Of a DNA stretch of 64,000 nucleotides, positions 32,114-56,535 are shown piece after piece. The notes beneath the pieces were generated by a model. It was not told where the DNA came from. It saw nothing but the letters and a program-made list of their open reading frames with translations, and made no database searches. Each line of letters opens with the position of its first letter. Position 1 is the stretch's first letter. This stretch comes from Escherichia coli (lineage in GTDB: Bacteria > Pseudomonadota > Gammaproteobacteria > Enterobacterales > Enterobacteriaceae), in NCBI RefSeq assembly GCF_024298765.1, contig NZ_CP101210.1; one strand, written 5' to 3'. The translations under genes were made by a program, and so were the position numbers.

Positions 32114-33534
32114 ATGAGCCAGCTAATCGTACAGTAAATAATTTGAGAAAGAGCGGAGACCTGCAAGGGGCTTGGGAGTTTGGTTTTCAAGCGTTGCAGG
32201 CAGCTCCCCAAGATACTTACTTGAAAGGTGCTTTATTTTGGGTGTGTTATGAGTTTCTTAAGCACCAGCTTGAAAATCTAAATAAGCGAGCGAGTTCTTC
32301 AAACAACTATCGTCCTACTGATTTTGAATTTGAGCAAATAGAGAACTTGCTGCAAACCATAGTAAATTTAGATATTGCTACTGGCGGCCTAGAGTACAAA
32401 ATGCTGCTGGTTCAGTTTAAGAAGAGTTTGGAATGGTTTCCAACCTTGATTCACCTTGTGCTTCGACATCAAACTGTACTATTTGATGATGAGGCTAAAA
32501 CACCTTTTCAAGCTGAAAAAGGTGAAGTGCCAAGTTTGATGCTCTCAACAGCACGCCAAGTGGCGAGTGCATGGCTTAGAGCACGAGAGTATTGGCATCT
32601 AGATCTTAACCAAGTGATGGCATTTATTAACCAAACACGCGAGCAAGCCTCTGACACTAAACATATGATGTGGCTTGATTACGACCAAGCGAAGTGCCTT
32701 GTTGTTGCGGGCCAATACGATCAGGCTCGCGAACTCATTCTACCCATTTTAAGAAAGAAGCAAAAAGAGTCTTGGGCTTGGGGAGCGTTGGCTGCTACTT
32801 ATTCAAAACAAGATCAGCGTTTAGCAATGAAGTTTTTTGCTAGGGGAATAGTATCCGCACATGACGTTACTTTTAGTTTACGTTTATTACAGGGAATTAT
32901 TCCTTTATTACTTGCAAATCAACAGCAAGCTGAAGCCTCAATGTGCCTAAAAACGGCTATTGCGGCTTATCAAGCCCATGGGTGGAAGCTAAAGCAAGAG
33001 CTAGAACAGCTATCTATGCAGGCTTGGTATGATTCTGGTGTCGATGAGAAGCAACTGAGTCCTTTTTTAAACTCTATTTCTCACGACGCTTTAAATTACT
33101 TGCATGGGCCGATGGAGAAGGTTGTTGCTATCGTAGAGAATATCCATAAATCCGGTAAAGGCTTTCAAGTATTCGTAAATAAGTCGACATCACTATCAGT
33201 TCGCATGGGGGTTCATAAAGGTAAGCAGAAACCTCAGGCTGGTGACTATGTCGAGCTATCCGTAGCGAGTGTTGATGGAAACAAAGAAGTAGTAGCTTCC
33301 TCATCGTCCAAGCAAGTAGATATGGCTGATGTTTCGTATGTAGAGGGTACGCTTCGAATAGCACCCAAAGGCTTCGGATTTGTCGAGGATACTTTTGTTC
33401 CTCCCTTTGTTATAGGTAATTTAAAAAATGAAACAAAAGTCAGAGCACTCCGTATCATGAGTTGGGACAAATCTAAAGCTCGCCACAACTGGAAAGCGAT
33501 TAAGTTAACGGAACTAAATTTTAATGAAGACTAA
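32110..33534 (+). CDS. Uncharacterised protein with N-terminal TPR-like helical repeats and C-terminal cold-shock/OB-fold-like region, translationally coupled to the helicase
   Basis: Start at MNEPANRT (ATG 32110, overlapping the helicase stop; ORF-track start 32089 rejected); C-terminal ...GTLRIAPKGFGFVEDTFVPPFVI resembles the GFGF cold-shock/S1 motif. Confidence 0.65.
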   Translation: MNEPANRTVNNLRKSGDLQGAWEFGFQALQAAPQDTYLKGALFWVCYEFLKHQLENLNKRASSSNNYRPTDFEFEQIENLLQTIVNLDIATGGLEYKMLLVQFKKSLEWFPTLIHLVLRHQTVLFDDEAKTPFQAEKGEVPSLMLSTARQVASAWLRAREYWHLDLNQVMAFINQTREQASDTKHMMWLDYDQAKCLVVAGQYDQARELILPILRKKQKESWAWGALAATYSKQDQRLAMKFFARGIVSAHDVTFSLRLLQGIIPLLLANQQQAEASMCLKTAIAAYQAHGWKLKQELEQLSMQAWYDSGVDEKQLSPFLNSISHDALNYLHGPMEKVVAIVENIHKSGKGFQVFVNKSTSLSVRMGVHKGKQKPQAGDYVELSVASVDGNKEVVASSSSKQVDMADVSYVEGTLRIAPKGFGFVEDTFVPPFVIGNLKNETKVRALRIMSWDKSKARHNWKAIKLTELNFNED

Positions 33535-33591
33535 GTCACTTTCCGGCGAAATCGAGTTAGGACAGGCTCAAGAATTAGCCGAGGTCGAATA

Positions 33592-33688
33592 ATGGCAACC
33601 CGAGTAGAAATGATTATCGAAACGCTCAAGGCGAACCCCGACAAGAAGTTTACTGCTCGGGACTTAGCCAAAGAATTTGTGCTTCGAT
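33592..33688 (+). pseudogene. First 32 codons of a third gene (winged-helix / HARE-HTH or Mrr-N-like N-terminus), truncated by the IS903-like element
   Basis: RBS gagg 7 nt before ATG 33592; MATRVEMIIETLKANPDKKFTARDLAKEFVLR then the frame enters the IS terminal repeat at 33689. Confidence 0.45.
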
Positions 33689-34745
33689 GGCTTTGTTGAA
33701 TAAATCGAACTTTTGCTGAGTTGAAGGATCAGATCACGCATCTTCCCGACAACGCAGACCGTTCCGTGGCAAAGCAAAAGTTCAAAATCACCAACTGGCC
33801 CACCTACAATAAAGCCCTCATCAACCGTGGCTCCATAACTTTCTGGCTGGATGATGAAGCTATTCAGGCCTGGTATGAGTCAGCAACACCTTCTTCACGA
33901 GGCAGACCTCAGCGCTATTCTGACCTTGCCATCACGACTGTGCTGGTCATTAAACGCGTATTCAGGCTGACCCTGCGCGCTGCGCAGGGCTTTATTGATT
34001 CCATTTTTTCTCTGATGAACGTTCCGCTACGCTGCCCGGATTACAGCTGTGTCAGCAGGCGGGCAAAGTCGGTTAATGTCAGTTTCAAAACGCCCACCCG
34101 GGGTGAAATCGCACATCTGGTGATTGATTCCACCGGGCTGAAGGTCTTCGGTGAAGGCGAGTGGAAAGTCAAAAAGCATGGCCAGGAACGCCGCCGTATC
34201 TGGCGTAAGCTGCATCTCGCCGTTGACAGTAAAACACATGAAATCATCTGTGCAGACCTGTCGCTGAACAACGTTACGGACTCAGAGGCCTTCCCCGGGT
34301 TAATCCGGCAAACCCACCGGAAAATCAGGTCAGCCGCCGCCGATGGCGCTTACGATACCCGGCTATGTCACGATGAACTGCGGCGTAAGAAAATCAGCGC
34401 GCTTATCCCTCCCCGAAAAGGTGCGGGTTACTGGCCCGGTGAATATGCAGACCGTAACCGTGCAGTGGCTAATCAGCGAATGACCGGGAGTAATGCGCGG
34501 TGGAAATGGACAACAGATTACAACCGTCGCTCGATAGCGGAAACGGCGATGTACCGGGTAAAACAGCTGTTCGGGGGGGCACTGACGCTGCGTGACTACG
34601 ATGGTCAGGTTGCGGAGGCTATGGCCCTGGTACGAGCGCTGAACAAAATGACGAAAGCAGGTATACCTGAAAGCGTGCGTATTGCCTGAAAACACAACCC
34701 GCTACGGGGGAGACTTACCCGAAATCTGATTTATTCAACAAAGCC
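33689..34745 (+). mobile_element. IS903/IS102-like element (IS5 family), ~1057 bp
   Basis: Inverted ends ggctttgttgaataaatcg (33689-) and the reverse complement ...gatttattcaacaaagcc (-34745); single transposase ORF; flanking 9-mers tgcttcgat / gttgccaaa do not match. Confidence 0.85.
33766..34689 (+). CDS. IS903-family transposase
   Basis: ORF 33721..34689 (322 aa from the track start); 307 aa if started at GTG 33766, the size I recall for IS903 transposase. Confidence 0.8.
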   Translation: MAKQKFKITNWPTYNKALINRGSITFWLDDEAIQAWYESATPSSRGRPQRYSDLAITTVLVIKRVFRLTLRAAQGFIDSIFSLMNVPLRCPDYSCVSRRAKSVNVSFKTPTRGEIAHLVIDSTGLKVFGEGEWKVKKHGQERRRIWRKLHLAVDSKTHEIICADLSLNNVTDSEAFPGLIRQTHRKIRSAAADGAYDTRLCHDELRRKKISALIPPRKGAGYWPGEYADRNRAVANQRMTGSNARWKWTTDYNRRSIAETAMYRVKQLFGGALTLRDYDGQVAEAMALVRALNKMTKAGIPESVRIA

Positions 34746-35282
34746 GTTGCCAAACCTGAAATAACACTTAGCTGTGATGATTCGCTATTACCTACCGATG
34801 GCTTCGGAAAACATAAATTAAAAATGCCCAGAGGAGTACTATTATCGTTAGCATTACCCGAACGCCGTATTAACGGTTATTTATTGGTAAGAGCTACGTT
34901 CCATGGCAAGAGTTCATCAACAGGTTGGAAGGCCATTCCGGCAAAACTCTCAGTATATGGCGCAGATACCATTCAGACAGCAGGTCCCGCTCAGCCCGTA
35001 CAGTAGAGCGCCGTTCACTACCGTAATCGCTACCGAAGAACACATTGATTGCCCCTCAATAATCCTGCTGTTAACATCAAAATTGTTGGTCGGGCTCGAT
35101 TTATTTAATTGTGTAAACAGGGTCTCTCAGAGAAAGGCCCTTATGCATCACCTGACGTTAAAAGTCACTACACCCAAGATGACGTTCAAAGTGTCATAGT
35201 CCCCTGCGCTGAGGACAAAGCCACACGTTAACGACAAATCCACGCGATAACTTACGATAGTTCGGACATAAGCCCCCATAAT

Positions 35283-35846
35283 TCAGTTATGTCGTGGTCG
35301 GCCGCGGTTACTTTTTTCGGGAAGCCTGCTACGGCCCAGAATAATACCGTGTTCTTTCTGATCTTGTTTAGCCAGATAGCTAAGGGCGTAACGTAAGTCG
35401 TCTACCGCAGACTTATCACTATAGTGAATCACGTGATCGATACGCACCGGGTATTTATCTTTAGCCCGGCACAGGTGAAAATAACCCTCCCCTTCCGTGA
35501 TCCGCCTCCAGATATCCCCCAGTTGCCTGGATATCTGATAAGAGTTCTTGTGACGTTGCCCATCCAGATAGCCGATAAAATGAATATGAAGCCCTTTGTC
35601 TGGTGTATATTCCATAACCCAGTAATATCCTGCCAACATCGTCTGGGTTTCGCTAAGTAAACGGTATATTTCCATACACATACTGTGCTTACAGGAATGC
35701 CCGAAACTGGGCGTGTCTTTCCTGTAGGCAAAATCAATTCTGAAAGGTAACAGTTTAGAAAAACGTTGAAACAATCCCTCCATGTGTTCATTCACATCTT
35801 TCAGAATCGCGAAATTCATTTCGTAATTGGGATTGGCATTATACAT
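35283..35846 (-). CDS. YagK/YfjJ-family protein (CP4-type island conserved gene)
   Basis: 187-aa ORF; family assignment from memory of CP4-57/CP4-6 gene content and its position next to the yfjI-like and alpA-like genes. Confidence 0.45.
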   Translation of the reverse strand: MYNANPNYEMNFAILKDVNEHMEGLFQRFSKLLPFRIDFAYRKDTPSFGHSCKHSMCMEIYRLLSETQTMLAGYYWVMEYTPDKGLHIHFIGYLDGQRHKNSYQISRQLGDIWRRITEGEGYFHLCRAKDKYPVRIDHVIHYSDKSAVDDLRYALSYLAKQDQKEHGIILGRSRLPEKSNRGRPRHN

Positions 35847-36735
35847 TTTATAGTCCTTACTTTATAAAATTCACAGGAAGAGGGAATTACGTAAATACTG
35901 AGAGTACATAAACGCCGTACCACGGCATTAATAAACGAGGTAACCAGCAGTACAGACAACCTGATAAAACTGTTTTGTATTACCGCATCGCTGTAACAAG
36001 GTAATACTTCAGAATTCAGTGAGGCTCTCTTAAACAGAGGACCAGTAATAATTACAATGGCAAAAACACACCTCAATATAATTGAATTTAAGAAAGCACC
36101 ATTCAATCACTTACAGGAAGTAATCTGATCTTCACAAAAGTCAGCTATCGAATAGCCACAGGCAACACCGCTATTGATACCCCACACACCATAAGAAGAT
36201 TATTCCATACAGAAAAAATTATATTTACCCATACTTATAAACTGTAACGGAGCTATGACGTACGAACTAAAGACACTACACTCTAATAGAGTTCTGGTAC
36301 CTAACCAGTGTTAAATACGAACCAGACATACATTCTATGGATTAATTTTCTCAATATTACGCTATGAGTGTAGTAACATAATTTACACCACATACACCAC
36401 CACACTGTAGTTAGTATATGGGGAGACATTACGATAAAAAGAGATAAGTTATACCACAGATACCACCACACAATACCATAACTCCCATTAATAATACTAA
36501 TTAACCTAAATTATTTATTGAATACGAAAACAATGAAGGTCCCACCTCACCTCAGACTAAAGCCGACAATATCCTGAGCAACACTCTATCCAATAGTAAA
36601 TAGTGGTTACACCAGTTATATTTACTGACTGACCTGTACCAGAGTTTTCTAATACAACAACGCTGACATGGTAAAGGCATTAGTCTCCTCCGCAAGTAGC
36701 AGAGGAGACTATATGTTACTCAACGATTAAGTCGT

Positions 36736-38187
36736 TCAGAGGTCAAAGTTAGGTGCGACACACAACGTTTTTCCCTCAATAACCGGTACAACTCTGTTTT
36801 GTTCATACAGTAAATCCAGTAACCAGTTGATTTTATCCTTTTTCCGGAAACGGTTCGGACCACGCTGTAAAATATCATTTTTTTTCATACAGGGGATCCC
36901 CTTCTCAATGCAATAGCTTTTTATCCAGTTGAAAAGTTCAAGCTCCTCTGGAATGAGTCGCACAGGTACGGTCAGGGCAGGGTTGTCAAAAGTTAACGGA
37001 TTAGACAACCGCACATACTCATTACCGTACCATATTGCTAATTCTCTCGCCATTTCTGCAGTGTAAGGGGAAATGTCCCCCTCTTCACCGCTCGAATGGT
37101 GAATAAGTCCTGCCAGTCTTGCCATATACTCTGCATTTTTAGCAGCATATTCCCGGCAATGTCTTAAAGGCCCCAATCCCCCCAGCTTCGATTCCACATC
37201 GTTGTAATAATCCGTCCAGATTCTGGCAGCCTGAGGAGAAAAGTGAAGGCAACGTCGTTCACCACTCATCGCCAGATTTTCATCAATAAGCTCATTGATC
37301 CTCTGTTCAAACAAATCCTGATACTGTGATGAATAATTATCTCCGGTTATTATCCTTGTCCCCTGCGTTGATGTTGGTTGACACATCAAAAACCTTGCAT
37401 GATGTCCTGACGTTTTCACAAGTTCTTTTTTTCGCGTACAAAAACCTTTCTGGTAAACATCAGGCTGAATCATCACCGATACCGTCAGTCTTGGATCCTT
37501 CAAAATAATTCCGGGAGATGATTTCCTGTCGATGAAAAGAGAACCACCATCCCACAAAGAGTTAAGTATTCCAAGTTTACTCATTGCCCGGCCATCAAAA
37601 ATTATTCCTCCTTCACTGGATACAAGAGCAAAAGAGCGATTGCTGTCGGAATAATATTTTAACATTCCCTCTATCGTTGTCTCATTGAAAATTGTCCGGC
37701 GTATCTGCGGCGGAACAGGACATTTATTCAGATGTCTTTTAAGCTCTGACTCTGTTGCCTTACAATCTTTACCGGCGCGAATTTCTTTATGCAATTTTGA
37801 CTCCAGTGCTTTTTGCTTTTGCTCCCATATTTCCTTTTCTGTACTGTAATTCTCAACCAGTTTCGCGTATTCTTCCGCCAGGGCTTCATCCCTGAGATAA
37901 AATGCTTTCATAAACACTTTATCCACGGTCGTTTTCCTTTCACCGGAATCAGCCAGAATCAGAGAGTAAAGATTAACAGGCCCACGTAAATTTCCAGGTC
38001 TGCACACGTCAATCTGATTCTGACAGGCACTTGAGAACGCTGTTAATGCGGATGTCGCCACCATAGCCAAAGGTGCCTGTGTATTTTTTTGAGTTTCAAT
38101 TATTGCATTTCTCACCAGCGGTGGTAGTGCATATACCGGATAAGGATTTTCTGGTGCAAGTAAGCACATAAAAGCCTCTCTTTTCAT
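36736..38187 (-). CDS. YfjI-like protein (DUF3987 family), CP4/P4-type island conserved gene
   Basis: 483-aa ORF (alternative start at MCLLAPENPYP, 38169); synteny alpA-yfjI-yfjJ on the same strand as the tRNA, as in CP4-57. Confidence 0.5.
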   Translation of the reverse strand: MKREAFMCLLAPENPYPVYALPPLVRNAIIETQKNTQAPLAMVATSALTAFSSACQNQIDVCRPGNLRGPVNLYSLILADSGERKTTVDKVFMKAFYLRDEALAEEYAKLVENYSTEKEIWEQKQKALESKLHKEIRAGKDCKATESELKRHLNKCPVPPQIRRTIFNETTIEGMLKYYSDSNRSFALVSSEGGIIFDGRAMSKLGILNSLWDGGSLFIDRKSSPGIILKDPRLTVSVMIQPDVYQKGFCTRKKELVKTSGHHARFLMCQPTSTQGTRIITGDNYSSQYQDLFEQRINELIDENLAMSGERRCLHFSPQAARIWTDYYNDVESKLGGLGPLRHCREYAAKNAEYMARLAGLIHHSSGEEGDISPYTAEMARELAIWYGNEYVRLSNPLTFDNPALTVPVRLIPEELELFNWIKSYCIEKGIPCMKKNDILQRGPNRFRKKDKINWLLDLLYEQNRVVPVIEGKTLCVAPNFDL

Positions 38188-38399
38188 TAATGGGTTAGTA
38201 AAGCAGCAGCAACTCCCGCTATAATAGCGAAATAGCTGCTGTTCAGACCTAATGTTCTGAGAAATACAGAATATCTGTAGATCTGATGTTTAATAAACCG
38301 ATAAGGTTAATTCAGTTCATACTGTGTTATTTACCACGAAATATCATTCATGTTTCTCATTCTTAACACCTCCTAAAATTATTTCACTAACACCTTCCC

Positions 38400-38645
38400 C
38401 CCGGTCTTTTTCCTTTCTCAGGAATCAGCCAGAACCATAGTGTAAATATTAACAGGCCCACGTAAATTTCCAGGTCTGCACACGTCAATCTGATTCTGAC
38501 AGGCAATTGACATCGCTGTTAATAATGATGTGGTAGTCATAGCCAGAGATGCTTTTTCATTGTGTTGAGTTTCAATTATTGCATTTCCAGTCATTGATGG
38601 TTGCGCATATACTGGATACGGAGTATCCGGTTTGATGTAAGACAT
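38400..38645 (-). pseudogene. Diverged partial duplicate of the 5' end of the yfjI-like gene
   Basis: 38400-38645 is ~85-90% identical to 37935-38187, including a 57-bp identical core; 75-aa ORF MSYIKPDTPYPVYAQPSMTGNAIIETQ... parallels the yfjI-like N-terminus then diverges. Confidence 0.6.
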
Positions 38646-38750
38646 AAATATTTCCTTTTTTCGTAATAACTTTCGGTTATAGCAGCTATTTCCGCTACAA
38701 TAGCAACAATAGCTGCTATACAGACTGGATATACTGAAAATACAGACAGT

Positions 38751-38999
38751 TCATCTGGTCTGTATCCAGCAAAGAAGGTCACTTAACAACCATCCGCAAG
38801 ATTTCTTTCCGATAGACTTACGTGGTGGAAATTTTCCCTCCCGTTCAAGTTTCCACGCTTGTGTACGAGAAATTGACGTGATCTCATATCGTTCCTTTTC
38901 ACGTACCAGTCTGTCGCATTCAATCCCATAAGCTTTCAAAATGACCAGACGCTGTTCATCTGTTAATGGAAGCCACATACTACCCTCCTGATATATCAA
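38751..38999 (-). CDS. alpA: AlpA-family phage/island transcriptional regulator (MerR-like HTH)
   Basis: 82-aa ORF; C-terminal ...ITSISRTQAWKLEREGKFPPRKSIGKKSCGWLLSDLLCWI matches the AlpA pattern. Confidence 0.6.
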   Translation of the reverse strand: MIYQEGSMWLPLTDEQRLVILKAYGIECDRLVREKERYEITSISRTQAWKLEREGKFPPRKSIGKKSCGWLLSDLLCWIQTR

Positions 39000-39669
39000 T
39001 ACTTTTTATTTCCGGCATGAGCATGAAATGACTAAGTTTCCCGGATAAACAATGAGTGAAAGTCACTATCATTCATCCAGTCAACGCCTTGCAAATAAAA
39101 TGTAATACTATGATTTTTATAGGTCAAAATACTAAATTACAATGTTAAAATGGCTTTTAACAGAAAAAATAAAGACATATGGAACCAAATAAAAACAAGC
39201 CACGACCAATAAAAACAAAAGATTAATATTAAAAATCCATTATGACGATTTTTGTTGACTAAAATTAGGTTGGGATATATAAATAAATCCATGTAAAATT
39301 CAAACAAGGCATAGAGGAGCCGCAGGAAGGTGAAATATTTCCATCTAATTTGTGATAATCATCACAAAAATAAGCTACAACAAGCGGAGGAAAAGACAAT
39401 CTGTTGCTGAACAGACAGAAGCAGGCTACGAATGATCGGAAAATGAAGCAAATACGCTTATACAGAAGACGCAGAGGTAACTGACGGAGACAATCACAAT
39501 CAGGAGAAAATTATCGTAAATAATGTATAAAATCTCAGGATATAAACAAATGTACACAAGCTATCCACGTAATCAGCGGCTGGCTCAGGATTGACGTTTC
39601 ATTTCAGTGGACAACATCGATTCTGTCTGACAGCGGACCAATATGTAGCAAGCAGAAACTTCTGACATC

Positions 39670-41307
39670 ATGGTAACTCGGACAATGCAACAAAAGTATC
39701 AGTATGATCGTGTTTTATCCGGCGAACTCCACCCATTCCCTGGCATATACGAGGCGGTTTCCGAACAAATCCTTTTGCTCATTTTTAAAGCACGTCAACT
39801 ATATCAGGATCCAGAATATCGCCCCTGGTTTGAAGAACAGCACAGAGTACTCTCTGCATTACGTGCCAATACAGAGCTCCTGAGAATCTTTAGAGAACAA
39901 AGAAGCGCTGAAGAACCAAAGCTTACTATTGAAGAGTCTACCTCCCCCCAACCCACTCCTTCTGCTCTTACAGATGCGCTTAATGTGATGTGCCATTTAT
40001 ACAATGGTTTTGATGAAGGAAATATCAGTCTGAAAACCTGGGGGGCGATGCAAGAGGTACAGACAACATCAACCTTTATCAGCCCAGGACCGAGAACCTG
40101 GAAAACACCTGAACTGGCAAAGTTTGTAGGAGATGATTTATTTAATATTCTGACTGAATGTAAGGCCTGGAGTTCACCAATTCCAGCAGAAACCCGACAG
40201 GGGTATTGCCATCAGGATCTGTCTGTTGCACACTCCTGCACCTCAGAGTTACTGGCACACCTGAATCAATATCATGAAATTGATGAATCAGCAATACTTG
40301 CCAGAGTTATTGGTATAACAGTTAACGGATTCTACAAGAAAAATAATACAGACCTTCCAGAATGGCTATCCCCCTTTAAAGAGGAACATAAAATATTCAA
40401 AGATTGTCCGGAGCAAAATACCGGGGATGTAATCAGACGGAAAGAACAACTGTTGAAAACAGGACGTACAGAATTCGTGAATAATTTGTGTCGGGTCGCC
40501 AACTGGTATGAAATTGAGTCAATATACGATGAATACGTCCGTCTTTATGCCAATGAAATCATTGACTGGTTCAACAAAACCATGAAGTATTTTAAACCAA
40601 CAGATTTTATCCGATATACATGGAAATTCGCAACAGTTACTCCGGATAAAGATACAGAAACCGGGCATACAACTGCATGGGAAAAGGATTATTGCCAGAT
40701 AACCATACAACGTGATGAACTTCTGAGGTTGATTCACACTAATACCCTTCAGGATGCTGTAATTTATCTTTGTCATTGTCTGCAGGAGAAATACAAGAAA
40801 TCATCCCAGAATGAGACAGAGTTTCCAGGAATAAAACCTCCGGCATCAGAGAGTGAAATTAATATAACAGATAATTTTGAATTTCATTCTCTTCTGGAGC
40901 TAAGTAAAGATAATGAGAAGCGGCTGGAAACATTTCAAAAATGGTATGAAAAAAATAAAGTTTTGTTAGAAAGTCATAAACAAAAACGAACAGAGAAGAT
41001 TGACGTTGCCGTACGACTTGTAGGGCTGAAAGCCTATGATCTGCATGAAGGGATTCCGGATAGTCCAAAACGAAAAGTTAAAGATGGCATAAATGAAGAC
41101 ATCAAAGCCGATACCAGTTTACGCCTGTCAAAGACAAATATAAGTGATACGTCGCTAAACCGTTATCGCCGCACTGTTAAGGAGATTATCAATAACGAAA
41201 TCGACGCATTCCTGTTGGAACAGAAGAAAAAAAATAAAAGATTTCCCTACAGTGAAGATAGAGATGTGATTCGCCCTTTATGGGGAAAATGCCTGACCGG
41301 GCAGTAG
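39670..41307 (+). CDS. Hypothetical protein, 545 aa, no recognisable domain; AT-rich island cargo
   Basis: Long ORF after a ~670-bp AT-rich, purine-skewed upstream region; no motifs recognised. Confidence 0.5.
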   Translation: MVTRTMQQKYQYDRVLSGELHPFPGIYEAVSEQILLLIFKARQLYQDPEYRPWFEEQHRVLSALRANTELLRIFREQRSAEEPKLTIEESTSPQPTPSALTDALNVMCHLYNGFDEGNISLKTWGAMQEVQTTSTFISPGPRTWKTPELAKFVGDDLFNILTECKAWSSPIPAETRQGYCHQDLSVAHSCTSELLAHLNQYHEIDESAILARVIGITVNGFYKKNNTDLPEWLSPFKEEHKIFKDCPEQNTGDVIRRKEQLLKTGRTEFVNNLCRVANWYEIESIYDEYVRLYANEIIDWFNKTMKYFKPTDFIRYTWKFATVTPDKDTETGHTTAWEKDYCQITIQRDELLRLIHTNTLQDAVIYLCHCLQEKYKKSSQNETEFPGIKPPASESEINITDNFEFHSLLELSKDNEKRLETFQKWYEKNKVLLESHKQKRTEKIDVAVRLVGLKAYDLHEGIPDSPKRKVKDGINEDIKADTSLRLSKTNISDTSLNRYRRTVKEIINNEIDAFLLEQKKKNKRFPYSEDRDVIRPLWGKCLTGQ

Positions 41308-41393
41308 ATCACAGATGGGATAACATCCCGGTTATCCCCTGTTTGTTCTGCTTCAGGTTGCCGGAGCTCCAGGAACACGAGGCAATCGGCAAA

Positions 41394-41990
41394 TTATGCG
41401 GCTTTTCCATTAACAGATTCGGCCACAAGAACAACACCGTGTTTGTTTCGATCAGGATGTTCACTCCAGATTTCTGATTCAGGAATACTTTCCCCATCAT
41501 AGCAGATCCGATCACCATCAAACGAATAATACCGTGCGGAATCTGTATCTAAGATAAACACCTTAAAATTCGTTGAACGACGCGCTATATGCTGCCAGAG
41601 GGCTTTACCTCCTTCATATTGCTCGTTATCACTTAATAGTATAACGCCTGCTTTTGTGGCTATTGTTTCATAAACAAACGTAGCAAGGCTAACATCACGT
41701 ACAGCGCCATCGACAACAATCCCTTCAATCTGAGCAACGTCCTGTTCTTCCCAGAATTTCCGGACAAACACCCCTTCAAGCTGTGAACGACGCTGAAGCT
41801 CCAGAGTGGCAACAACCTTATGGCGAATATCACCATCAATAACAGAAGGTGCAGCTTCGATTACCGCAGCGAACGGAGTCTTTGGATCCCAGATGATCTG
41901 GTAAAGCACACCCTGAATAGTTACTCCATCCAGTATCGAAAAACGACGAGCTACAGTAGCAGGGGAGTAAGACATTGGAATGACAGCCAT
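41394..41990 (-). CDS. Hypothetical protein, 198 aa, no recognisable domain; occupies the tRNA-proximal slot where an integrase is expected
   Basis: ORF ~310 bp from the thrW 3' end; no tyrosine-recombinase motifs. Confidence 0.45.
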   Translation of the reverse strand: MAVIPMSYSPATVARRFSILDGVTIQGVLYQIIWDPKTPFAAVIEAAPSVIDGDIRHKVVATLELQRRSQLEGVFVRKFWEEQDVAQIEGIVVDGAVRDVSLATFVYETIATKAGVILLSDNEQYEGGKALWQHIARRSTNFKVFILDTDSARYYSFDGDRICYDGESIPESEIWSEHPDRNKHGVVLVAESVNGKAA

Positions 41991-42300
41991 TTTATGGCCT
42001 AAAATTTGAAAACATCAGTATCAATACTGACCTCATCAGTCTGAGCATATATTGATAAAGTTTTTATGTTTACACTCAATAAATACCTTGCCAAACAACT
42101 AATAGCGATGTCTACATTGCCATTCGACATGCTTACAATTTTTGTCAACAAGAAAGTGAATTTATATCAACGGTAAGAAGTAAACACGAGGACACCAAAA
42201 CCAAATGTACACACTTTTGTGCTTTGTGTCCCCTGTGTGTACCCAAATGACAAACTGCAAGAAAATCTAGGCACACACTTATCTAACTTATTGATTTAAA

Positions 42301-42376
42301 TGGTGCCGATAATAGGAGTCGAACCTACGACCTTCGCATTACGAATGCGCTGCTCTACCAACTGAGCTATATCGGC
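42301..42376 (-). tRNA. thrW: tRNA-Thr (anticodon CGU)
   Basis: Reverse complement gccgatatagctcagttggtagagcagcgcattcgtaatgcgaaggtcgtaggttcgactcctattatcggcacca: cloverleaf with anticodon loop attCGTaat, T-loop ggttcgactcc, encoded CCA. Confidence 0.95.
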
Positions 42377-50213: not shown

Positions 50214-50269
50214 TTATTTGATTTGCTGCCGGATGGCGTTTAATCGCCTTCCGGCAGTTTCATCCTTCA

Positions 50270-50884
50270 TTACCCTTCGATAAAGGCCATCCCTGTAAAC
50301 GTTCGTCGCGGGTTGCCACGTTCAATCTGGTGATGGAACATTCGCCGCTGCGATTTCAGCGCCGCGCTATTTTCCTGTTGCTGTTGTTCCAGCTTCCAGG
50401 CAATCAGTAATCGCGCCAGCCGTTTGTTAGCATGCTGACTGCGCTCTGACTGAACCTTCACGCTAATACCGGATGCCAGATGCGTGGCGCGTACCGCCGA
50501 GTCGGTTTTATTGACATGTTGACCGCCCGGCCCCGACGAACGCAGCGTCTCATAACGGATTGCATCCGATTGTTCCTGCTCATCAGCGGTAAAACGCCCA
50601 ATGCCCAGAAACCAGTTTTTGCGCCCATGATGAGGCCGATACGGACTCGGACAAATCCACTGAATAGTGCCGCACCAGCTTTCGCTTAGAGCCCATGCGT
50701 TATCGCCATCCAGAGAAATCAGCGCCGAACGCAGTGTGTCAGAGTAGCGACCCGTTTCTGTTTCCAGCACCGTTACCGCGACGTCCTGTCGGGTAGCTTC
50801 TTTAATCAGCCTGTCCAGTGCTTTTCTCACTGCGAGACAACATTCTTCCGGCCCCTGAGCAGAGGAGAGTTGTAGCAAGATCAT
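50270..50884 (-). CDS. prfH: Peptide chain release factor homolog PrfH (GGQ motif present), apparently full length
   Basis: Start at [14 protein letters not shown] overlapping the upstream rtcB-like stop (ATGA); contains [15 protein letters not shown]. Confidence 0.85.
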
Positions 50885-52020
50885 CCTTTTTTCCCTCCAC
50901 TGTTTTTGAGCGTCAGCACCGGGCGCAGTCGCGCGACAGGAATAATTAACCCAGCCAGCACCAGACATTGCACCACGCTTTCAGCCGATTTATAGGCTTG
51001 TGGCGCTTCTTCAAAGATGAGTTGTTTATCGCGACAAATTACCCGACTGCCAAGTTCAGTCCGCGAGAGTTGCGTCGCCGTGTATTTCGCTGCCAGACGC
51101 CCTTTACACTCGGTGCGCCCCCATTTACGCCCCGCCCCATGCGCCAGCGAGTGGAGCGTTTTTTCGTTCGCAACAGGTTTAACCAGCCAGGAGTAATCGC
51201 CGCGTGAACCGGGAATAATCACCAGACCGTTGTCATCCGGCGTGGCGCCTTTACGATGCAACCAGCCCTGTTGATCGCCGATTTGGCACGCGCTAACAAA
51301 GTTATGCGCCACATCCAGAACCGGACTTCCGGTGGCCTTAACTTGTTGCATTATGCGCAAAGCGATCAGCTGGCGATTAATACGCGCAAACGCCAGCGCA
51401 TCGTCATGTTCCGCAATATACCGTAGCGCGTCGTCACTGCCTTCAGGCAAACCATGATGCGAAAACGAGGCAATATGCCGCTGTAAAATAGACTGCCCCA
51501 ATCCCCTCGAGCCGCTATGAACCAGCAGTTGCAGATGCTGCGCATCCAGACCAGCCAGTGCAAACAGTTCCGCGTCGATAATTTGATCAATCTGTTGCAG
51601 TTCTACGAAGTGGTTACCGCCACCGATGGAGCCAAGCGAGTTGCGCCACGGATGCTGTGCAAATGCTGACGGCAGGTTTTCCTCCAGCCAGCTTTCTTCA
51701 GCAACGTCATCCAGATCTGATAATCGCTTTTCAAACTTATCGGCGTTGTATTTGCGAGCGAGAATATCTGTTTGCCATAGCGCCATGCCGCAGCCGATAT
51801 CATTGCCGACCAGTGCCGGGTAAAAACGACCAACAGAGAAGAACGCTGCGCCAATCGGGTAGCCGCGTCCGGGATGTAAATCTGGCATCCCCACAACGCG
51901 CTGCATGTTGGGTAAATTTGCCGTGGTGTGTAATTGTTGGATCGCTAAACTCTCGATCCACAGGTCATCAGATGCGATGGTAAATACCGCATCGGATAAG
52001 GGACGAATATATTTGCCCAT
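50881..52020 (-). CDS. rtcB: RtcB-family RNA ligase paralog coupled to prfH
   Basis: Start at [13 protein letters not shown] within ORF 50881..52032; RtcB-like His/Cys-rich motifs ([17 protein letters not shown]). Confidence 0.8.
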
Positions 52021-52209
52021 GTACCATTCCATTTATGAATAAAAATCAGGAAATGGCAGACGAATCCAGGGCAAGAAAAAAGAATTAATCCTGGAAAGGT
52101 CTGCAAAGAGTCATTGATAAAGGATTTGTCATGATTTACCTCCTTGCAGTTTGTGGAATAAGAAAACGCGCACATACTAGACGGGCGTTATTTTCATTGC
52201 AAGCTGGAT

Positions 52210-52662
52210 TTAATGTTGCGGTTTATATCGCATATAAAAATTAGTAAACCACGTTCCCCGGCATTCAACGCGCTGCTGCTTAACTGTCTGAAAACCATAA
52301 CGTTCAAAAAAGGGTTTTGCGGTTATGCTGGCGTCCACCGTAAGTTCGGATTCAGACTTAATCAATGGTTTTAACAAAGCGCTGGCAACTCCGCGTCGGG
52401 TGTATTCCGGTTCAACAAATAACATATCGATATAATGTCCAATGCGGGTAATAAAACCAACCGGTTGTGCATTAATAACTGCAACCCGCACTTGTGATTT
52501 CGCGAGTTTCTCCTTCCAGCGAGATTCGTCAATCTGCGCCCAGGCGGCAATTTGCTGTGGAGAATAGTGCTGACTCGCCGTCATCGTAACAGCTCGAAGG
52601 AAAATAGCGCATAGTTGCTGAAAATCACCAGGCTGATAGTTTCTTATTTGTATGTTATTCAT
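52210..52662 (-). CDS. yafP: GNAT-family N-acetyltransferase YafP
   Basis: 150-aa ORF; start overlaps the dinB stop. Confidence 0.9.
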
Positions 52663-53714
52663 AATCCCAGCACCAGTTGTCTTTCCATTTGAGGGTCAAG
52701 CAACGTCACATGCAGCCCCACCAGTCGCACACCGCGCCCGCCGCGACGTTCATCCCAGGTTTTACGCGCGGTGGCGATTAGATCAGCTTTATTCAGCCGC
52801 GGCCAGACGTGCTCCTGAGTAGTTTGCTGAAAATCGTCGAACTTTAATTTCACCCCCTGGCGAGCAATCAGTAAATCAGGTTTTACCTTTGCCAGACGGC
52901 GTTCAAGTTCAGGATACAGCCGCTCAATAATCGCTTCACATTCAGACCAGTGATGAATATCTTCCGCCATCGTGCGTTCCACGCCGACGGATTTTCGCAA
53001 CCGTTCACTGTTAACGTCGCGCTCGTCAATCCCCTGACTACGCTCCCACAAAATGCGGCCAAATTTGCCAAAGCGTTTAAGCAGAATCACCAGATCACAC
53101 TTTTGCACATCACCGCAGGTCCGCAGCCCCATCGCTTCCAGTTTTGCCGCCGAGACTTTGCCGACGCCGGGAATTTTTGCCAGCGGTAAGGTTTGCAGAA
53201 ATGCCGGAACTTCTGCCGGCGTAATCACAAACTGACCGTTGGGTTTATTCATGTCGGAAGCAATTTTGGCGAGAAACTTGACCGGCGCAACGCCCGCAGA
53301 CGCCGTCAGTTGCAGCTCGTTGAAGATCGTCTGGCGGATTTCCTGGGCGATGAGGGTCGCAGAACCGTGGCAATGGACGCTATCGGTGACATCGAGATAG
53401 GCTTCATCCAGTGATAACGGTTCAATGCGCGAGGTATAGCGCGAGAAAATTTCGCGGATATGATTTGAGGCTTCTTTGTAGGCGTCAAAGCGCCCTGGAA
53501 GCAAGGTGAGATGCGGGCATAATTTGAGCGCCATCCCTGTCGGCATAGCGCTACGTACGCCAAATTTACGCGCGGGATAATTGGCGGTGCTGATCACCCC
53601 CCGTCGTTCGCGGCTGCCGCCAATAGCAATAGGGATATCGCGCAGGGCGGGATTATCGCGCATCTCCACCGCTGCGAAAAAGCAGTCCATATCCACATGA
53701 ATGATTTTACGCAT
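52659..53714 (-). CDS. dinB: DNA polymerase IV (Y-family translesion polymerase)
   Basis: 351 aa [33 protein letters not shown]...; UmuC-type catalytic motifs. Confidence 0.95.
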
Positions 53715-53784
53715 TGCTCACCTCTCAACACTGGTAAAGTATACAGTAATTTCAGGGGTTGAGAAATGCGTAAAGATTCAGCAT

Positions 53785-54500
53785 TTAACGCGCTCGCTGC
53801 GAAAGCACCTGCTGCTTATCCAGCTTTTGCACCAGCGGCTGCACCACTTTATCCCCATGCTGACCAAAGTATTGATACAGCGTATCGGACGCACTTTTGG
53901 TCAGCACCATAATCTCAATGCGCCGGTTGCCCGCGCTTTGCGGATTTTTGGCATCCAGCAACATCTGGTCCGCCATTGCGCTTACCTGCATCACTTTATC
54001 TTCCGGCATTCCGGCCTCTTCCAGCACCCGACGAGCCGAAAGCGCGCGATCGCCCGAAAGGTTCCAGTTGTTGTAGATATTGTTTTTGTAGGCCATCGCA
54101 TCGGTATGCCCGGTAATAATAATTTTGTTATCGAGAGAGTCGAACACCGGCGCAAGCTCCACCAGCAGCGTTTTAAAGAACGGCATAATCTTCGCGCTGC
54201 CGCGTTCAAACATATTGCGGTTCTGGTCGTCTTTAATCAGCACGCGTAATCCCTGGGGAACAATCTCCATCTCCAGATTCGCTTCCATATGCGCATCACG
54301 GGCGATGGTATTGATACTGGTTGCCAGCTCGCCAAGCTCGGTGGCGGATTTCTTCTTCAGCAGCGCCGTTTTCTCGTTGACGTCGCGCGCTTTTTTCTCC
54401 GTCTCTTCCGGCACCGCCACGGTGGCAGGTTTTGGCGGATGAGACGGGCTGATTTTATTTAACGGCGACAGCCCGCCACCATTGAAAATCGACTGCCCGT
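53785..54500 (-). pseudogene. lafU: Remnant of lateral-flagellar (Flag-2) motor protein gene lafU (MotB-like C-terminal OmpA domain)
   Basis: C-terminal OmpA/MotB-like region (...IIITGHTDAMAYKNNIYNNWNLSGDRALSARRVLEEAGMPED...); N-terminal part of ORF 53785..54675 is antisense to the lfhA fragment and not MotB-like. Confidence 0.7.
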
Positions 54501-54544
54501 GCAGCGCGGCGATAATGCTTTCACGCTCGGATTTACTGACGCTG

Positions 54545-56254
54545 TTGACAATCAACTTTATCGTCGTCACCAAGGGGGCCGAGCGTATTTCCGAGGTTTC
54601 TGCCCGCTTTACCCTGGACGCGATGCCCGGCAAACAGATGGCGATTGACGCCGATCTTAACGCCGGGTTGATCAACCAGACGCAGGCGCAAACCCGGCGT
54701 AAAGATGTCGCCAGCGAGGCCGATTTCTACGGCGCAATGGACGGGGCATCAAAATTTGTGCGCGGGGACGCCATCGCCGGGATGATGATTCTGGCAATCA
54801 ACCTGATCGGCGGCGTCTGTATCGGCATCTTCAAATACAACCTGAGCGCCGACGCCGCCTTCCAGCAATATGTGCTGATGACTATCGGCGATGGGCTGGT
54901 GGCGCAAATCCCTTCCCTGCTGCTCTCCACCGCGGCGGCGATTATCGTCACCCGCGTCAGCGATAACGGTGATATCGCCCATGACGTGCGTAATCAGTTG
55001 CTGGCAAGCCCGTCGGTTCTCTACACCGCCACTGGAATTATGTTCGTGCTGGCGGTGGTGCCGGGAATGCCGCATTTCCCGTTCCTGATGTTCAGCGCCC
55101 TGCTTGGTTTTACCGGCTGGCGGATGAGCAAGCGCCCGCAAGCGGCGGAGGCGGAAGAGAAAAGCCTCGAAACGCTAACCCGTACGATGACAGAAACCAG
55201 CGAGCAACAGGTCAGTTGGGAAACTATTCCGCTGATCGAACCTATCAGTTTAAGCCTCGGCTACAAACTGGTGGCGCTGGTGGATAAAGCGCAGGGCAAC
55301 CCGCTCACCCAGCGTATTCGCGGCGTACGTCAGGTGATTTCCGACGGCAACGGCGTGCTGCTGCCGGAGATCCGTATTCGGGAAAACTTCCGCCTCAAGC
55401 CCAGCCAGTACGCCATTTTCATCAACGGCATTAAGGCTGATGAAGCGGATATTCCGGCAGATAAACTGATGGCCCTGCCCTCCAGCGAAACCTACGGCGA
55501 GATAGACGGCGTGCTGGGGAACGACCCGGCGTACGGGATGCCGGTCACCTGGATTCAGCCCGCGCAGAAAGCGAAGGCGCTGAATATGGGGTATCAGGTG
55601 ATCGACAGCGCCAGCGTAATTGCCACCCATGTGAATAAGATTGTGCGCAGCTATATTCCTGATTTGTTTAACTATGACGATATTACTCAGCTGCATAACC
55701 GTTTGTCGTCGATGGCACCGCGACTGGCGGAAGATTTGAGCGCGGCGCTCAATTACAGCCAGTTGCTGAAAGTGTACCGGGCGCTACTGACTGAAGGCGT
55801 TTCCCTGCGCGATATCGTCACCATCGCCACCGTGTTGGTCGCCAGTAGTGCGGTGACTAAAGATCATATTCTGCTGGCGGCCGATGTGCGCCTGGCGCTG
55901 CGGCGCAGCATTACCCATCCGTTCGTTCGCAAGCAGGAGCTGACGGTGTATACGCTGAATAATGAGCTGGAAAATCTGCTGACCAACGTGGTGAATCAGG
56001 CGCAACAGGCCGGCAAAGTGATGCTTGATAGCGTGCCAGTGGATCCGAATATGCTCAACCAGTTCCAGAGCACGATGCCTCAGGTGAAGGAGCAGATGAA
56101 AGCGGCGGGGAAAGATCCGGTGCTGCTGGTGCCGCCGCAGCTGCGCCCCTTGCTGGCGCGCTACGCAAGGTTGTTTGCGCCGGGGCTGCATGTGCTGTCG
56201 TATAACGAAGTGCCGGATGAGCTGGAGTTGAAGATAATGGGGGCGCTGATATAG
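54545..56254 (+). pseudogene. lfhA: 5'-truncated lateral-flagellar FlhA homolog (lfhA), remnant of the Flag-2 cluster
   Basis: FlhA-like from ...INFIVVTKGAERISEVSARFTLDAMPGKQMAIDADLNAG (about FlhA residue 140) to the C-terminus; the first ~20 codons of ORF 54482..56254 are not FlhA-like. Confidence 0.75.
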
Positions 56255-56257
56255 GCA

Positions 56258-56535
56258 TGATAAGACGCGTCTGCGTCGCATCTGGCACCGGTACACAACC
56301 GCCGGATGCGGCGTGAACGCCTTATCCGGCCTACGGGTGAGCACGGTTTTGTCGGCATGATAAGACGCGTGGCGTCGCATCTGGCATCGGCGCACAACCG
56401 CCGGATGCGGCGTGAACGCCTTATCCGGCCTACTGGTGAGTGCGGTTTTGTCGGCATGATAAGACGCGTAGTGTCGCATCAGACACCGGCGCACAACCGC
56501 CAGATGCGGCGTGAACGCCTTATCCGGCCTACAAA
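56258..56535. repeat. REP/BIME cluster: three tandem ~98-bp units of repetitive extragenic palindromes
   Basis: Repeated gcatgataagacgcg...gtcgcatc...gccggatgcggcgtgaacgccttatccggcctac units at ~56258, 56356, 56454. Confidence 0.85.

Follow-up and report, generated by a model that had tools for sequence, protein, structure and literature searches.

An intact RtcB2-PrfH ribosome rescue-and-repair operon in Escherichia coli and the conserved leader region upstream of it

RtcB2 and PrfH of Escherichia coli ATCC 25922 form a described ribosome rescue-and-repair module, and here we compare it with the rtcB2-prfH operon at 50270-52020 (minus strand) of a 64,000-nucleotide stretch of E. coli DNA (contig NZ_CP101210.1, assembly GCF_024298765.1), which is called the window throughout. 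Tian et al. (2022) reported that PrfH from ATCC 25922 frees the peptide only from 70S ribosomes that are cut at A1493/G1494 of the 16S rRNA and not from intact ones (PMC9304027). PrfH did not bind intact ribosomes in cryo-electron microscopy (cryo-EM) either (PMC9304027), and the cryo-EM structure at 2.55 Å revealed a pocket of PrfH for the new 3'-phosphorylated A1493 (PMC9304027; PDB 7SA4). Damaged 30S subunits are a substrate for re-ligation by E. coli RtcB2 and tRNA is not, and the reverse holds for RtcB1 (PMC9304027). In vivo, the toxicity of colicin-E3-like ribotoxins is reversed by RtcB2-PrfH in a Q122- and H294-dependent manner (PMC9304027). Maviza et al. (2022) found that chromosomal knockouts of ATCC 25922 lose their colicin E3 resistance (PMC9223846), deletion from the chromosome at native expression leads to colicin E3 sensitivity (PMC9223846; PMC13166195), and the kinetics of the system have been reported as well (PMC13166195).

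Two more distant systems are relevant for the comparison. A study of 2026 sets apart a longer subfamily, PrfH-CT, which rescues intact ribosomes too (PMC12829566). In Pseudomonas aeruginosa, control of the armZ(PA5471)-prfH(PA5470) operon lies with a leader of 13 codons, PA5471.1, and works via stalling-dependent attenuation (PMC3516279; PMC13041342).

The window contains both genes of the module on the minus strand. The first, rtcB2 (50881-52020), encodes a PrfH-associated RtcB-family 3'-phosphate/5'-OH RNA ligase of 379 residues, as assigned from its open reading frame (ORF), NCBIfam, Pfam and structure alignments. The second, prfH (50270-50884), encodes peptide chain release factor H of 204 residues, a member of the short class without C-terminal tail. 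A preliminary description, made from the sequence alone, had placed an intact RtcB-like/prfH operon at 50270-52032. Our analysis agrees with it, since both genes are full length and match curated NCBIfam models well above the cut-offs. RtcB2 scores 641 bits against the equivalog NF007153 (cut-off 407; model positions 1-378 of 379) and 618 bits against TIGR03073 ('release_rtcB'; cut-off 272; positions 1-356 of 356). PrfH scores 328 bits against TIGR03072 ('release_prfH'; IPR017509; cut-off 167), where residues 2-201 cover all 200 model positions. The Pfam matches are RtcB (PF01139, E=4e-74) for the ligase and RF-1 (E=1e-24) for the release factor. Internal frameshifts or lost catalytic residues had been named as findings that would refute the description; no frameshift and no internal stop is present in rtcB2 or prfH, and the catalytic residues are kept as described below.

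The two genes overlap by an ATGA at 50881-50884 (minus strand), where the prfH ATG takes 50884-50882 and the rtcB2 TGA takes 50883-50881. The overlap and the order of ligase gene then prfH, both read directly from the sequence, are thereby confirmed. An overlap of the ATGA type is typical for the RtcB2-PrfH family (PMC1586002). In every related locus that we inspected, rtcB2 lies directly upstream of prfH with overlapping or abutting ORFs. The arrangement suggests translational coupling of the two genes.

The start of rtcB2 needs a correction. The ORF of the RtcB family in the ORF list runs from 52032 to 50881 and would encode 383 residues (MEWYMGK...), which corresponds to the upper bound given in the preliminary description. 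The bounds of both ORFs are right, while 52032 as the start of rtcB2 was dropped in favor of the ATG at 52020 (MGKYIRP..., 379 residues). The latter is almost certainly the true start, because NF007153 aligns only from position 5 of the 383-residue ORF onward, because other lineages of E. coli have lost the upstream ATG yet keep MGK/MGN, and because the published mutant H294N fits a histidine at 294 only in the 379-residue numbering.

The motifs D..C, NH, HSGSRG, AHN and HGAGR of RtcB2 are all kept in a HMMER alignment with the RtcB structures of P. horikoshii and T. thermophilus. Residues D74, C77, N136-H137, H168, H239 and H294 correspond to D95, C98, N202-H203, H234, H329 and H404 of P. horikoshii RtcB, and the positions of Asp74, Cys77, Asn136-His137, His168 and His239 are those which we take to be the metal- and GTP-binding residues of the P. 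horikoshii enzyme. His294 is the essential catalytic histidine that was mutated as H294N (PMC9304027).

PrfH is identical in 204/204 residues to chain 8 of PDB 7SA4. The expectation of a full-length prfH with a GGQ motif was borne out, as the whole TIGR03072 model is covered and GGQ forms residues 120-122 (50527-50519). The catalytic Gln122 is kept, and Q122 mutants are inactive (PMC9304027). The contact residues listed in the structural study (PMC9304027), R83, H85, H86, R88, K89, N90, R52, S53, R181, H184 and R189, are all present; among them R83, H86, R88 and R189 form the pocket for the A1493 3'-phosphate. These contact residues touch the A1493 3'-phosphate, h18, S12, H69, C1054 and C1914 (PMC9304027). 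PrfH has domains 2-4 only and no counterpart of domain 1 of RF1/RF2, with alignments to RF2 chains beginning at about RF2 residue 116-134, and the same domain-1-less architecture has been described in PMC9304027.

A 1,940-bp query covering the operon and its upstream region is 100% identical to ATCC 25922 (two assemblies), CFT073, ABU 83972, Nissle 1917 and many other strains, and over the 1,763-bp operon interval the identity to E. coli Nissle 1917 is 100% as well. ATCC 25922 also shares the gene order, the ATGA overlap and the chromosomal site dinB-yafP-rtcB2-prfH-pepD. No difference exists within the module, and only the surrounding strain background differs. Because the operon is nucleotide-identical, the published ATCC 25922 results apply directly to the window. 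Thus we are highly confident that 50270-52020 is a functional RtcB2-PrfH ribosome rescue-and-repair operon, and the claim that the strain retains a functional module stands. Its role in ribosome rescue and rRNA repair, which had been called proposed, is by now beyond that stage, with biochemical, structural and in vivo proof for the identical operon (PMC9304027, PMC9223846, PMC13166195). The colicin E3 resistance test that had been suggested as a check is already published for ATCC 25922 (PMC9223846). The module is therefore already known, and the operon itself adds nothing new.

On the published mechanism, a ribotoxin (colicin E3 or CdiA-CT(ECL)) would cut the 16S rRNA between A1493 and G1494, and the ribosomes would stall. 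[quoted passage not shown] Its GGQ would hydrolyse the peptidyl-tRNA, so that the ribosome could be split. RtcB2 would then rejoin the 2',3'-cyclic-phosphate/3'-phosphate and 5'-OH ends of the 16S rRNA, best on the 30S subunit and not on tRNA, and the ATGA overlap would couple the translation of the two proteins.

Comparison with the paralogous ligase of E. coli sharpens the assignment. RtcB1, the product of the sigma-54/RtcR-controlled rtcBA operon, is likewise a member of Pfam PF01139, and RtcB2 too has the motif residues that are conserved in alignments with solved RtcB structures. However, RtcB1 is only about 28% identical to RtcB2 and the two have mutually exclusive substrates, tRNA and the 16S rRNA in 30S (PMC9304027). 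The partner gene is rtcA for RtcB1 and prfH for RtcB2. No RtcR/sigma-54 signal is seen upstream of rtcB2, where a sigma-54-like pattern (TGG-N9-10-TGC) has no match in the yafP-rtcB2 spacer; only a sigma-70-like site and a short leader ORF are found. On the side of the release factor, PrfH of Capnocytophaga gingivalis (CgPrfH, of the PrfH-CT subfamily; PMC12829566) belongs to the same family IPR017509/TIGR03072, and activity on damaged ribosomes is common to both. The PrfH-CT proteins are 225-250 residues long, carry a basic C-terminal tail and rescue also intact non-stop ribosomes, whereas the window PrfH has 204 residues and no tail.

An intact rtcB2-prfH occurs in about 50% of the complete E. 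coli genomes and is thus no rare state. A match to 80% or more of the 1,940-bp query is present in 2,709 of the 5,426 complete genomes, and most others match only about 42% of it. The preliminary description had given ykfJ and prfH of K-12 as truncated pseudogenes. This is correct, as MG1655 b0235 and b0236 are annotated so and a single 1,027-bp deletion accounts for both. The K-12 alignment proposed as a check shows by blastn that the missing segment corresponds to 50787-51822 (minus strand) of the window, which is itself intact. The deletion is flanked by imperfect 9-bp direct repeats, TACCCGGCA (51822-51814) and TACCCGACA (50795-50787), and it takes rtcB2 from about codon 67 (the 3' part) together with the first ~30 codons of prfH. 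The K-12-type deletion and the intact/deleted polymorphism were described in 2006 by Baranov et al. (PMC1586002). K-12 shares the locus and its flanks with the window, with 97% identity in the retained parts and an identical leader ORF; it differs by the lack of the 1,027 bp and also by an ERIC-like insertion of about 129 bp just upstream of the rtcB2 start. Nothing was found that speaks against the function of the two genes themselves. The cells can clearly do without them, as the deletion is carried by about half of the complete genomes.

At the operon locus the strain has a B2-type background, like that of ATCC 25922, CFT073 and Nissle. For annotation, this means that the strain should resist 16S-cleaving ribotoxins better than K-12. 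Matches to E. coli plasmids were considered as a sign of mobility and rejected, as they are mostly F' plasmids with K-12 chromosomal DNA or chromosome-sized records.

The leader upstream of rtcB2 is the only part of the locus that might add something new. From the yafP stop at 52210 to rtcB2 there is a spacer of 189 bp, and the leader occupies 52013-52202 on the minus strand. At its start we find a putative sigma-70 promoter (52174-52202, minus strand) with the -35 hexamer TTGCAA (52202-52197), a 17-nt spacer and the -10 hexamer TAGTAT (52179-52174). This candidate has 8/12 consensus matches and is under the threshold of our scan. It is followed by an upstream ORF (uORF), MTNPLSMTLCRPFQD*, with 15 codons and a stop (52085-52132, minus strand), which is preceded by a strong Shine-Dalgarno sequence AAGGAGG. 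The uORF is unannotated in the records of Nissle, a K-12 derivative and MG1655.

Four segments with mutual complementarity can be recognised in the leader, all on the minus strand. Segment 1, CUGCAAGGAGG (52139-52149), contains the Shine-Dalgarno region of the uORF and is complementary to segment 2a. Segment 2 (52089-52110) lies inside the uORF and consists of 2a, CUCUUUGCAGAC (52110-52099), and 2b, UCCAGGA (52095-52089); its partner can be either segment 1 or segment 3. Segment 3 (52049-52074) is composed of UUGCCC (52074-52069), 3b CCUGGA (52070-52065), 3a GUCUGC (52061-52056) and 3c CCAUUUCC (52056-52049). Segment 4 (52013-52030) is the initiation region of rtcB2, with the Shine-Dalgarno-like GGAAUGG (52030-52024) and AUGGGCAA (52020-52013). 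Parts 3a and 3b are the pairing partners of segment 2, and UUGCCC and 3c are those of the rtcB2 ribosome-binding region in segment 4.

The leader is strongly conserved. Even where E. coli lineages differ by 4-5% in rtcB2-prfH, their leader does not vary. Against E. whittamii there are 0 substitutions in 120 aligned nucleotides (52169-52050) compared with 113 in 1,137 (9.9%) for rtcB2, and the chance of zero leader substitutions at the rtcB2 rate is about 4e-6. The same leader is present in Salmonella Infantis (MTIHSLNALCRHFQD), Klebsiella (MNTDFQNILCRPSQE) and Pseudomonas sp. PDM18 (MQALITLCRSRLA, 13 codons), and in Salmonella, Klebsiella and Pseudomonas a promoter-like site TTGCAN-N17-TAnnAT stands at the same relative position. 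A Ralstonia megaplasmid has a short uORF, MRYTVPPLCGPRLG, with a strong Shine-Dalgarno sequence upstream of rtcB2; short uORFs with a strong Shine-Dalgarno sequence also precede rtcB2 in Shinella and Tritonibacter, and the divergent rtcB-prfH copy of an IncC plasmid has the uORF MQNTSTSFAGLVR, again with a strong Shine-Dalgarno sequence. The start codon, the Shine-Dalgarno sequence and a length of 13-16 codons are kept across alpha-, beta- and gamma-proteobacterial examples. In Salmonella, Klebsiella, Pseudomonas, Ralstonia and metagenome contigs, the uORFs related to that of the window contain ...LCR(P/S)...

Metagenome contigs were scanned with a pattern built on two RtcB2 motifs, which gave 120 loci, 66 of them with a complete gene and 300 nt upstream. 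A uORF is present upstream of rtcB2 in 30/66 of these loci, compared with 12 for the reverse-complement control and 10 for shuffles. Many of the uORF peptides share ...(I/L)(T/S)LCR(P/S)..., and a back-translated uORF pattern searched in 100,044 species genomes matched only three Escherichia genomes. By this sequence comparison the uORF peptide itself is not conserved outside Escherichia, and the family is seen only via the RNA blocks and the ...LCR... motif. No Rfam family fits the leader; the best one, STnc350, lies on the opposite strand at 20 bits (gathering threshold 60, E=0.37) and was taken as a chance match.

Four conserved blocks emerge from the aligned leaders. Their consensus is CUGCAAAGGAGG for segment 1, CUUUGCAGRYC...CCAGG (uORF codons ~8-14) for segment 2, UUGCCC-CCUGG...GRYCUGC-CCAAUCC for segment 3 and GGAUUGG-N3-AUGGGCAA for segment 4. 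Base pairs were counted on an alignment from a sequence-only covariance model, which is hence blind to structure. This model recovered about 16 distinct leaders among 139 loci; divergent leaders (L042/L064/L069, L124 and the alpha-proteobacterial ones) were missed by it and recognised by eye.

The helix between segments 2 and 3 is supported by comparative data. The six-pair core of 2a:3a is paired in 16/16 leaders (100%), with compensatory changes at 2/6 positions, namely GC/AU/GU at one position and CG/UA/UG/AU at another. For the whole 2:3 structure, the covariation is 0.358 compared with 0.173±0.025 for shuffles (0/500 reach the observed value), and no more than 43% of cells are paired in slid controls. 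The covariation is similar on the MAFFT alignment A3. The divergent leaders show 2:3 complementarity with other letters, as seen by eye for L124 (GCAAUCAC/GUGAUUGC) and L042 (GCAGCCC/GGGCUGC). In addition, UUGCCC:GGGCAA pairs in 77% of cells, with 3 compensatory positions. Because the leader is conserved and the 2:3 helix covaries, we take it as a real, conserved cis-element, a conclusion drawn from sequence comparison.

What this element does is a separate question. The layout, the uORF and the complementary segments suggest that the leader may have a stall-sensing role, and we tentatively propose that the ~150-nt leader could be a damaged-ribosome sensor, which would switch on the repair operon by the very lesion that it repairs. 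In this model the Shine-Dalgarno sequence of the uORF pairs with codons 8-11 of that uORF. Without a ribosome, or with a ribosome over segment 2, the initiation region of rtcB2 would be held by segment 3. If a ribosome has initiated on the uORF and is unable to elongate, it would sit on segment 1. Since a ribosome parked at the uORF start would cover segment 1, segment 2 would be free to pair with segment 3, and this pairing would loosen the structure that hides the rtcB2 ribosome-binding site. Stalling of ribosomes early in the uORF would then influence the translation of rtcB2 (or transcription read-through). Colicin-E3-cleaved ribosomes are reported to accumulate at start codons (PMC13166195). 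With its own promoter and leader, the operon would be induced by the damage that its products repair, in analogy to the PA5471.1 leader of armZ-prfH. The reported inducibility of K-12 ykfJ by 4-azaleucine (PMC3516279) would fit the model, as would the control of the P. aeruginosa homolog through a leader peptide (PMC13041342). In ensemble folding of 12 leaders, the mean cost of opening the rtcB2 ribosome-binding site is 8.6 kcal/mol with a ribosome on the uORF start, compared with 11.8 for the free RNA, 11.7 for a ribosome in mid-uORF and 12.3 kcal/mol for one at the uORF stop. The cost is lowest with the uORF start occupied in 12/12 leaders.

Several results weigh against a sensor of this kind. 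Helix 1:2 is paired in 81-87% across 11-16 leaders and helix 3c:4 in 74-77%, both against at most 53% in slid controls, but there is hardly any covariation in either of them. For the E. coli leader the predicted drop of the opening cost is small, 10.3 vs 11.7 kcal/mol (1.4). Helices 2:3 and 3c:4 overlap by just 1-3 nt, and the fold of the whole leader is not more stable than shuffles (z = -1.5). A consensus scan of 52021-52209 on the minus strand detected no intrinsic terminator. In some lineages segments 3 and 4 are separated by an ERIC insertion, which is tolerated. A simple switch, in which the 2:3 helix fully frees the Shine-Dalgarno sequence, was considered and rejected: in constrained folding the 2:3 helix does form as the model predicts, but the minimum-energy folds keep the inner 3c:4 hairpin and only a partial ensemble effect remains.

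The same results leave room for another explanation of the upstream conservation, which we regard as possible though rather unlikely. The conserved region might be a promoter/operator for a protein regulator, a small RNA or small protein with a function of its own, or an attenuator of another type (Rho-dependent or terminator-based, as proposed for PA5471.1). The missing covariation of helices 1:2 and 3:4 and the partly paired Shine-Dalgarno sequence in the minimum-energy folds would fit this explanation. So would the U-rich tract that follows segment 3 in most leaders; in the window it lies at 52048-52037, not directly adjacent to a strong stem. Furthermore, the P. aeruginosa model is transcriptional (PMC13041342), and the conserved ...LCR(P/S)... 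could matter as a peptide. On the other hand, the conserved LC codons CUU UGC exactly complement the conserved Shine-Dalgarno flank GCAAAG, so that RNA pairing would explain the ...LC... peptide motif. The covariation of helix 2:3 on a structure-blind alignment, the features of the uORF that are kept across three proteobacterial classes, and the lack of both an intrinsic terminator in the window scan and an Rfam match likewise argue against it.

The proposed stall sensor can be compared with two known types of attenuator. In P. aeruginosa, PA5471.1 precedes a homologous two-gene operon, with PA5471 in the PRK09588 cluster that the window RtcB2 matches as NF007153. There too the transcript has a short leader ORF in its upstream part, and the operon is induced when ribosomes stall on PA5471.1. 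The window has such a same-strand short leader ORF with its own Shine-Dalgarno sequence (52132-52085, AAGGAGG). The differences are nevertheless considerable. PA5471.1 lies about 250 bp upstream, acts as a transcription attenuator with terminator hairpins, and has Gln3-Phe4 in its peptide, unlike the E. coli uORF (PMC13041342); ArmZ has an added role as MexZ anti-repressor. The E. coli leader and PA5471.1 were compared by their descriptions, and none of the rtcB2-prfH loci retrieved has an M-x-Q-F uORF. The translational attenuators of ermC and cat resemble the leader in having a short leader ORF with its own Shine-Dalgarno sequence and four complementary segments. There is, however, no sequence relationship, and segment 1 of the rtcB2 leader is the uORF's own Shine-Dalgarno sequence instead of leader codons. 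Moreover, 2:3 and 3:4 barely overlap in the rtcB2 leader, which makes their mutual exclusivity uncertain, and no drug-dependent arrest peptide is known for it.

The E. coli RtcB2-PrfH literature that we examined mentions neither a leader nor ArmZ, Pseudomonas or any regulation of rtcB2-prfH (Morita 2006 and 2009 were outside this scope), and the rtcB2 leader with its uORF may thus be undescribed for E. coli. If the sensor model is true, the leader would connect the studies of RtcB2-PrfH in E. coli with the PA5471.1/ArmZ attenuator of P. aeruginosa, with a possible link to the armZ attenuator that controls MexXY-mediated aminoglycoside resistance. The model is concrete and cheaply testable.

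The conserved leader bears also on the question of which stress the operon serves. It could mainly serve to cope with translation stress in general (from antibiotics, amino-acid analogues or non-toxin stalling), as for ArmZ/PA5470 of P. aeruginosa, with ribotoxin defence being secondary. Ribosome-targeting drugs induce PA5471-PA5470, and a relief of macrolide-induced stalling has been reported for PA5470 (PMC12057347; PMC3516279). K-12 ykfJ is reported to be inducible by 4-azaleucine (PMC3516279), and a conserved leader would suggest a stall sensor that is not specific for toxins. However, E. coli PrfH released the peptide only from A1493/G1494-cleaved ribosomes, RtcB2 repaired 16S rRNA and not tRNA (PMC9304027), and E. 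coli PrfH is of the short class without the tail that gives CgPrfH its activity on intact stalled ribosomes (PMC12829566). We consider a general stress role as the main one to be improbable.

We regard it as very improbable that the two genes, though undamaged in sequence, are cryptic and in effect silent, a relic that is being lost as in K-12 and does nothing for the strain. In favor of such a reading, cells can live without the locus (80% or more of it is present in 2,709 of 5,426 complete genomes, and the majority of the others have the deletion), the rtcB2 Shine-Dalgarno sequence is weak and the initiation region is predicted to be base-paired. Against it, the ATCC 25922 knockout with identical operon and upstream region is colicin E3-sensitive (PMC9223846, PMC13166195), the coding sequences have no disabling changes and the leader is under strong purifying selection.

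Some further observations concern the leader and the mobility of the module. An ERIC/IRU-like insertion polymorphism is located exactly between segment 3 and the rtcB2 ribosome-binding site (equivalent to ~52036-52039 of the window). The insertion is about 129 bp long in K-12 and in some cryptic-clade Escherichia, a form of about 56 bp occurs in other lineages with an intact operon, and the window has none; the loci concerned are L002:6725-7041, L005:2663-2967, L006, L008, L011, L012 and L112. On the IncC plasmid NC_021667.1 of K. pneumoniae (L013; 2686-4549), the divergent rtcB-prfH pair (44% PrfH identity) with its leader uORF lies between qnrA6 and sul1, a position in the resistance region of conjugative IncC plasmids. 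As the pair is accompanied by its own uORF there, module and leader have been mobilised as a unit. The same PrfH match (43.6% identity) was obtained on another Klebsiella plasmid and on an E. coli plasmid. On a plasmid of Shinella sp. HZN7 (L016; 1-2505), a second, different RtcB-family gene is found directly upstream of rtcB2-prfH and a VapBC pair downstream.

The gene order around the operon is dinB-yafP-rtcB2-prfH, followed by the convergent pepD and then gpt and frsA. A GC-rich inverted repeat at 50226-50257 (no strand), between the convergent pepD and prfH, was found as a self-inverted blast match and is predicted to fold into a hairpin of -25.1 kcal/mol. It is probably a bidirectional terminator shared by pepD and prfH, going by this predicted fold; our consensus terminator scan did not list it.

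On the upstream side, dinB and yafP (52210-53714) overlap, with the yafP start at 52662 inside the 3' end of dinB, whose stop is at 52659. The window has no yafN-yafO toxin-antitoxin pair between dinB and yafP, and the K-12 order is dinB-yafN-yafO-yafP. Both dinB-yafP layouts co-occur with intact rtcB2-prfH, as L009 has yafNO and L006-L008 do not. A LexA-box-like palindrome, TACTGTATACTTTACCAGTG, lies at 53731-53750 upstream of dinB, beside a promoter-like site at 53765-53738. Since no terminator was detected between yafP and rtcB2, SOS-driven read-through from dinB-yafP into rtcB2-prfH is conceivable. The conserved promoter-like site and the leader argue for a separate rtcB2 transcript versus co-transcription with dinB-yafP.

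The region 53785-56254 holds a remnant of the Flag-2 lateral flagellar cluster, in which lafU (MotB-like) overlaps an N-terminally truncated FlhA-like gene; the latter is a RefSeq pseudogene in Nissle and K-12. Window positions 42296-64000 align to Nissle 1917 at 99.87%, and the DNA upstream of thrW is a different island, with CFT073 differing there too. The tRNA-Thr(CGU) gene is at 42301-42376; beyond it Nissle 1917 has the vat island, which the window does not match. Positions 30001-42300 resemble islands of other strains with helicase, TPR protein, IS903B, YfjI-family and inovirus Gp2-like genes, and only 4/5,426 genomes cover at least 80% of window positions 30001-55000. Finally, direct repeats of about 100 bp with ~90-92% identity lie at 56254-56532 and appear as off-diagonal self-matches in the comparison of the window with Nissle.

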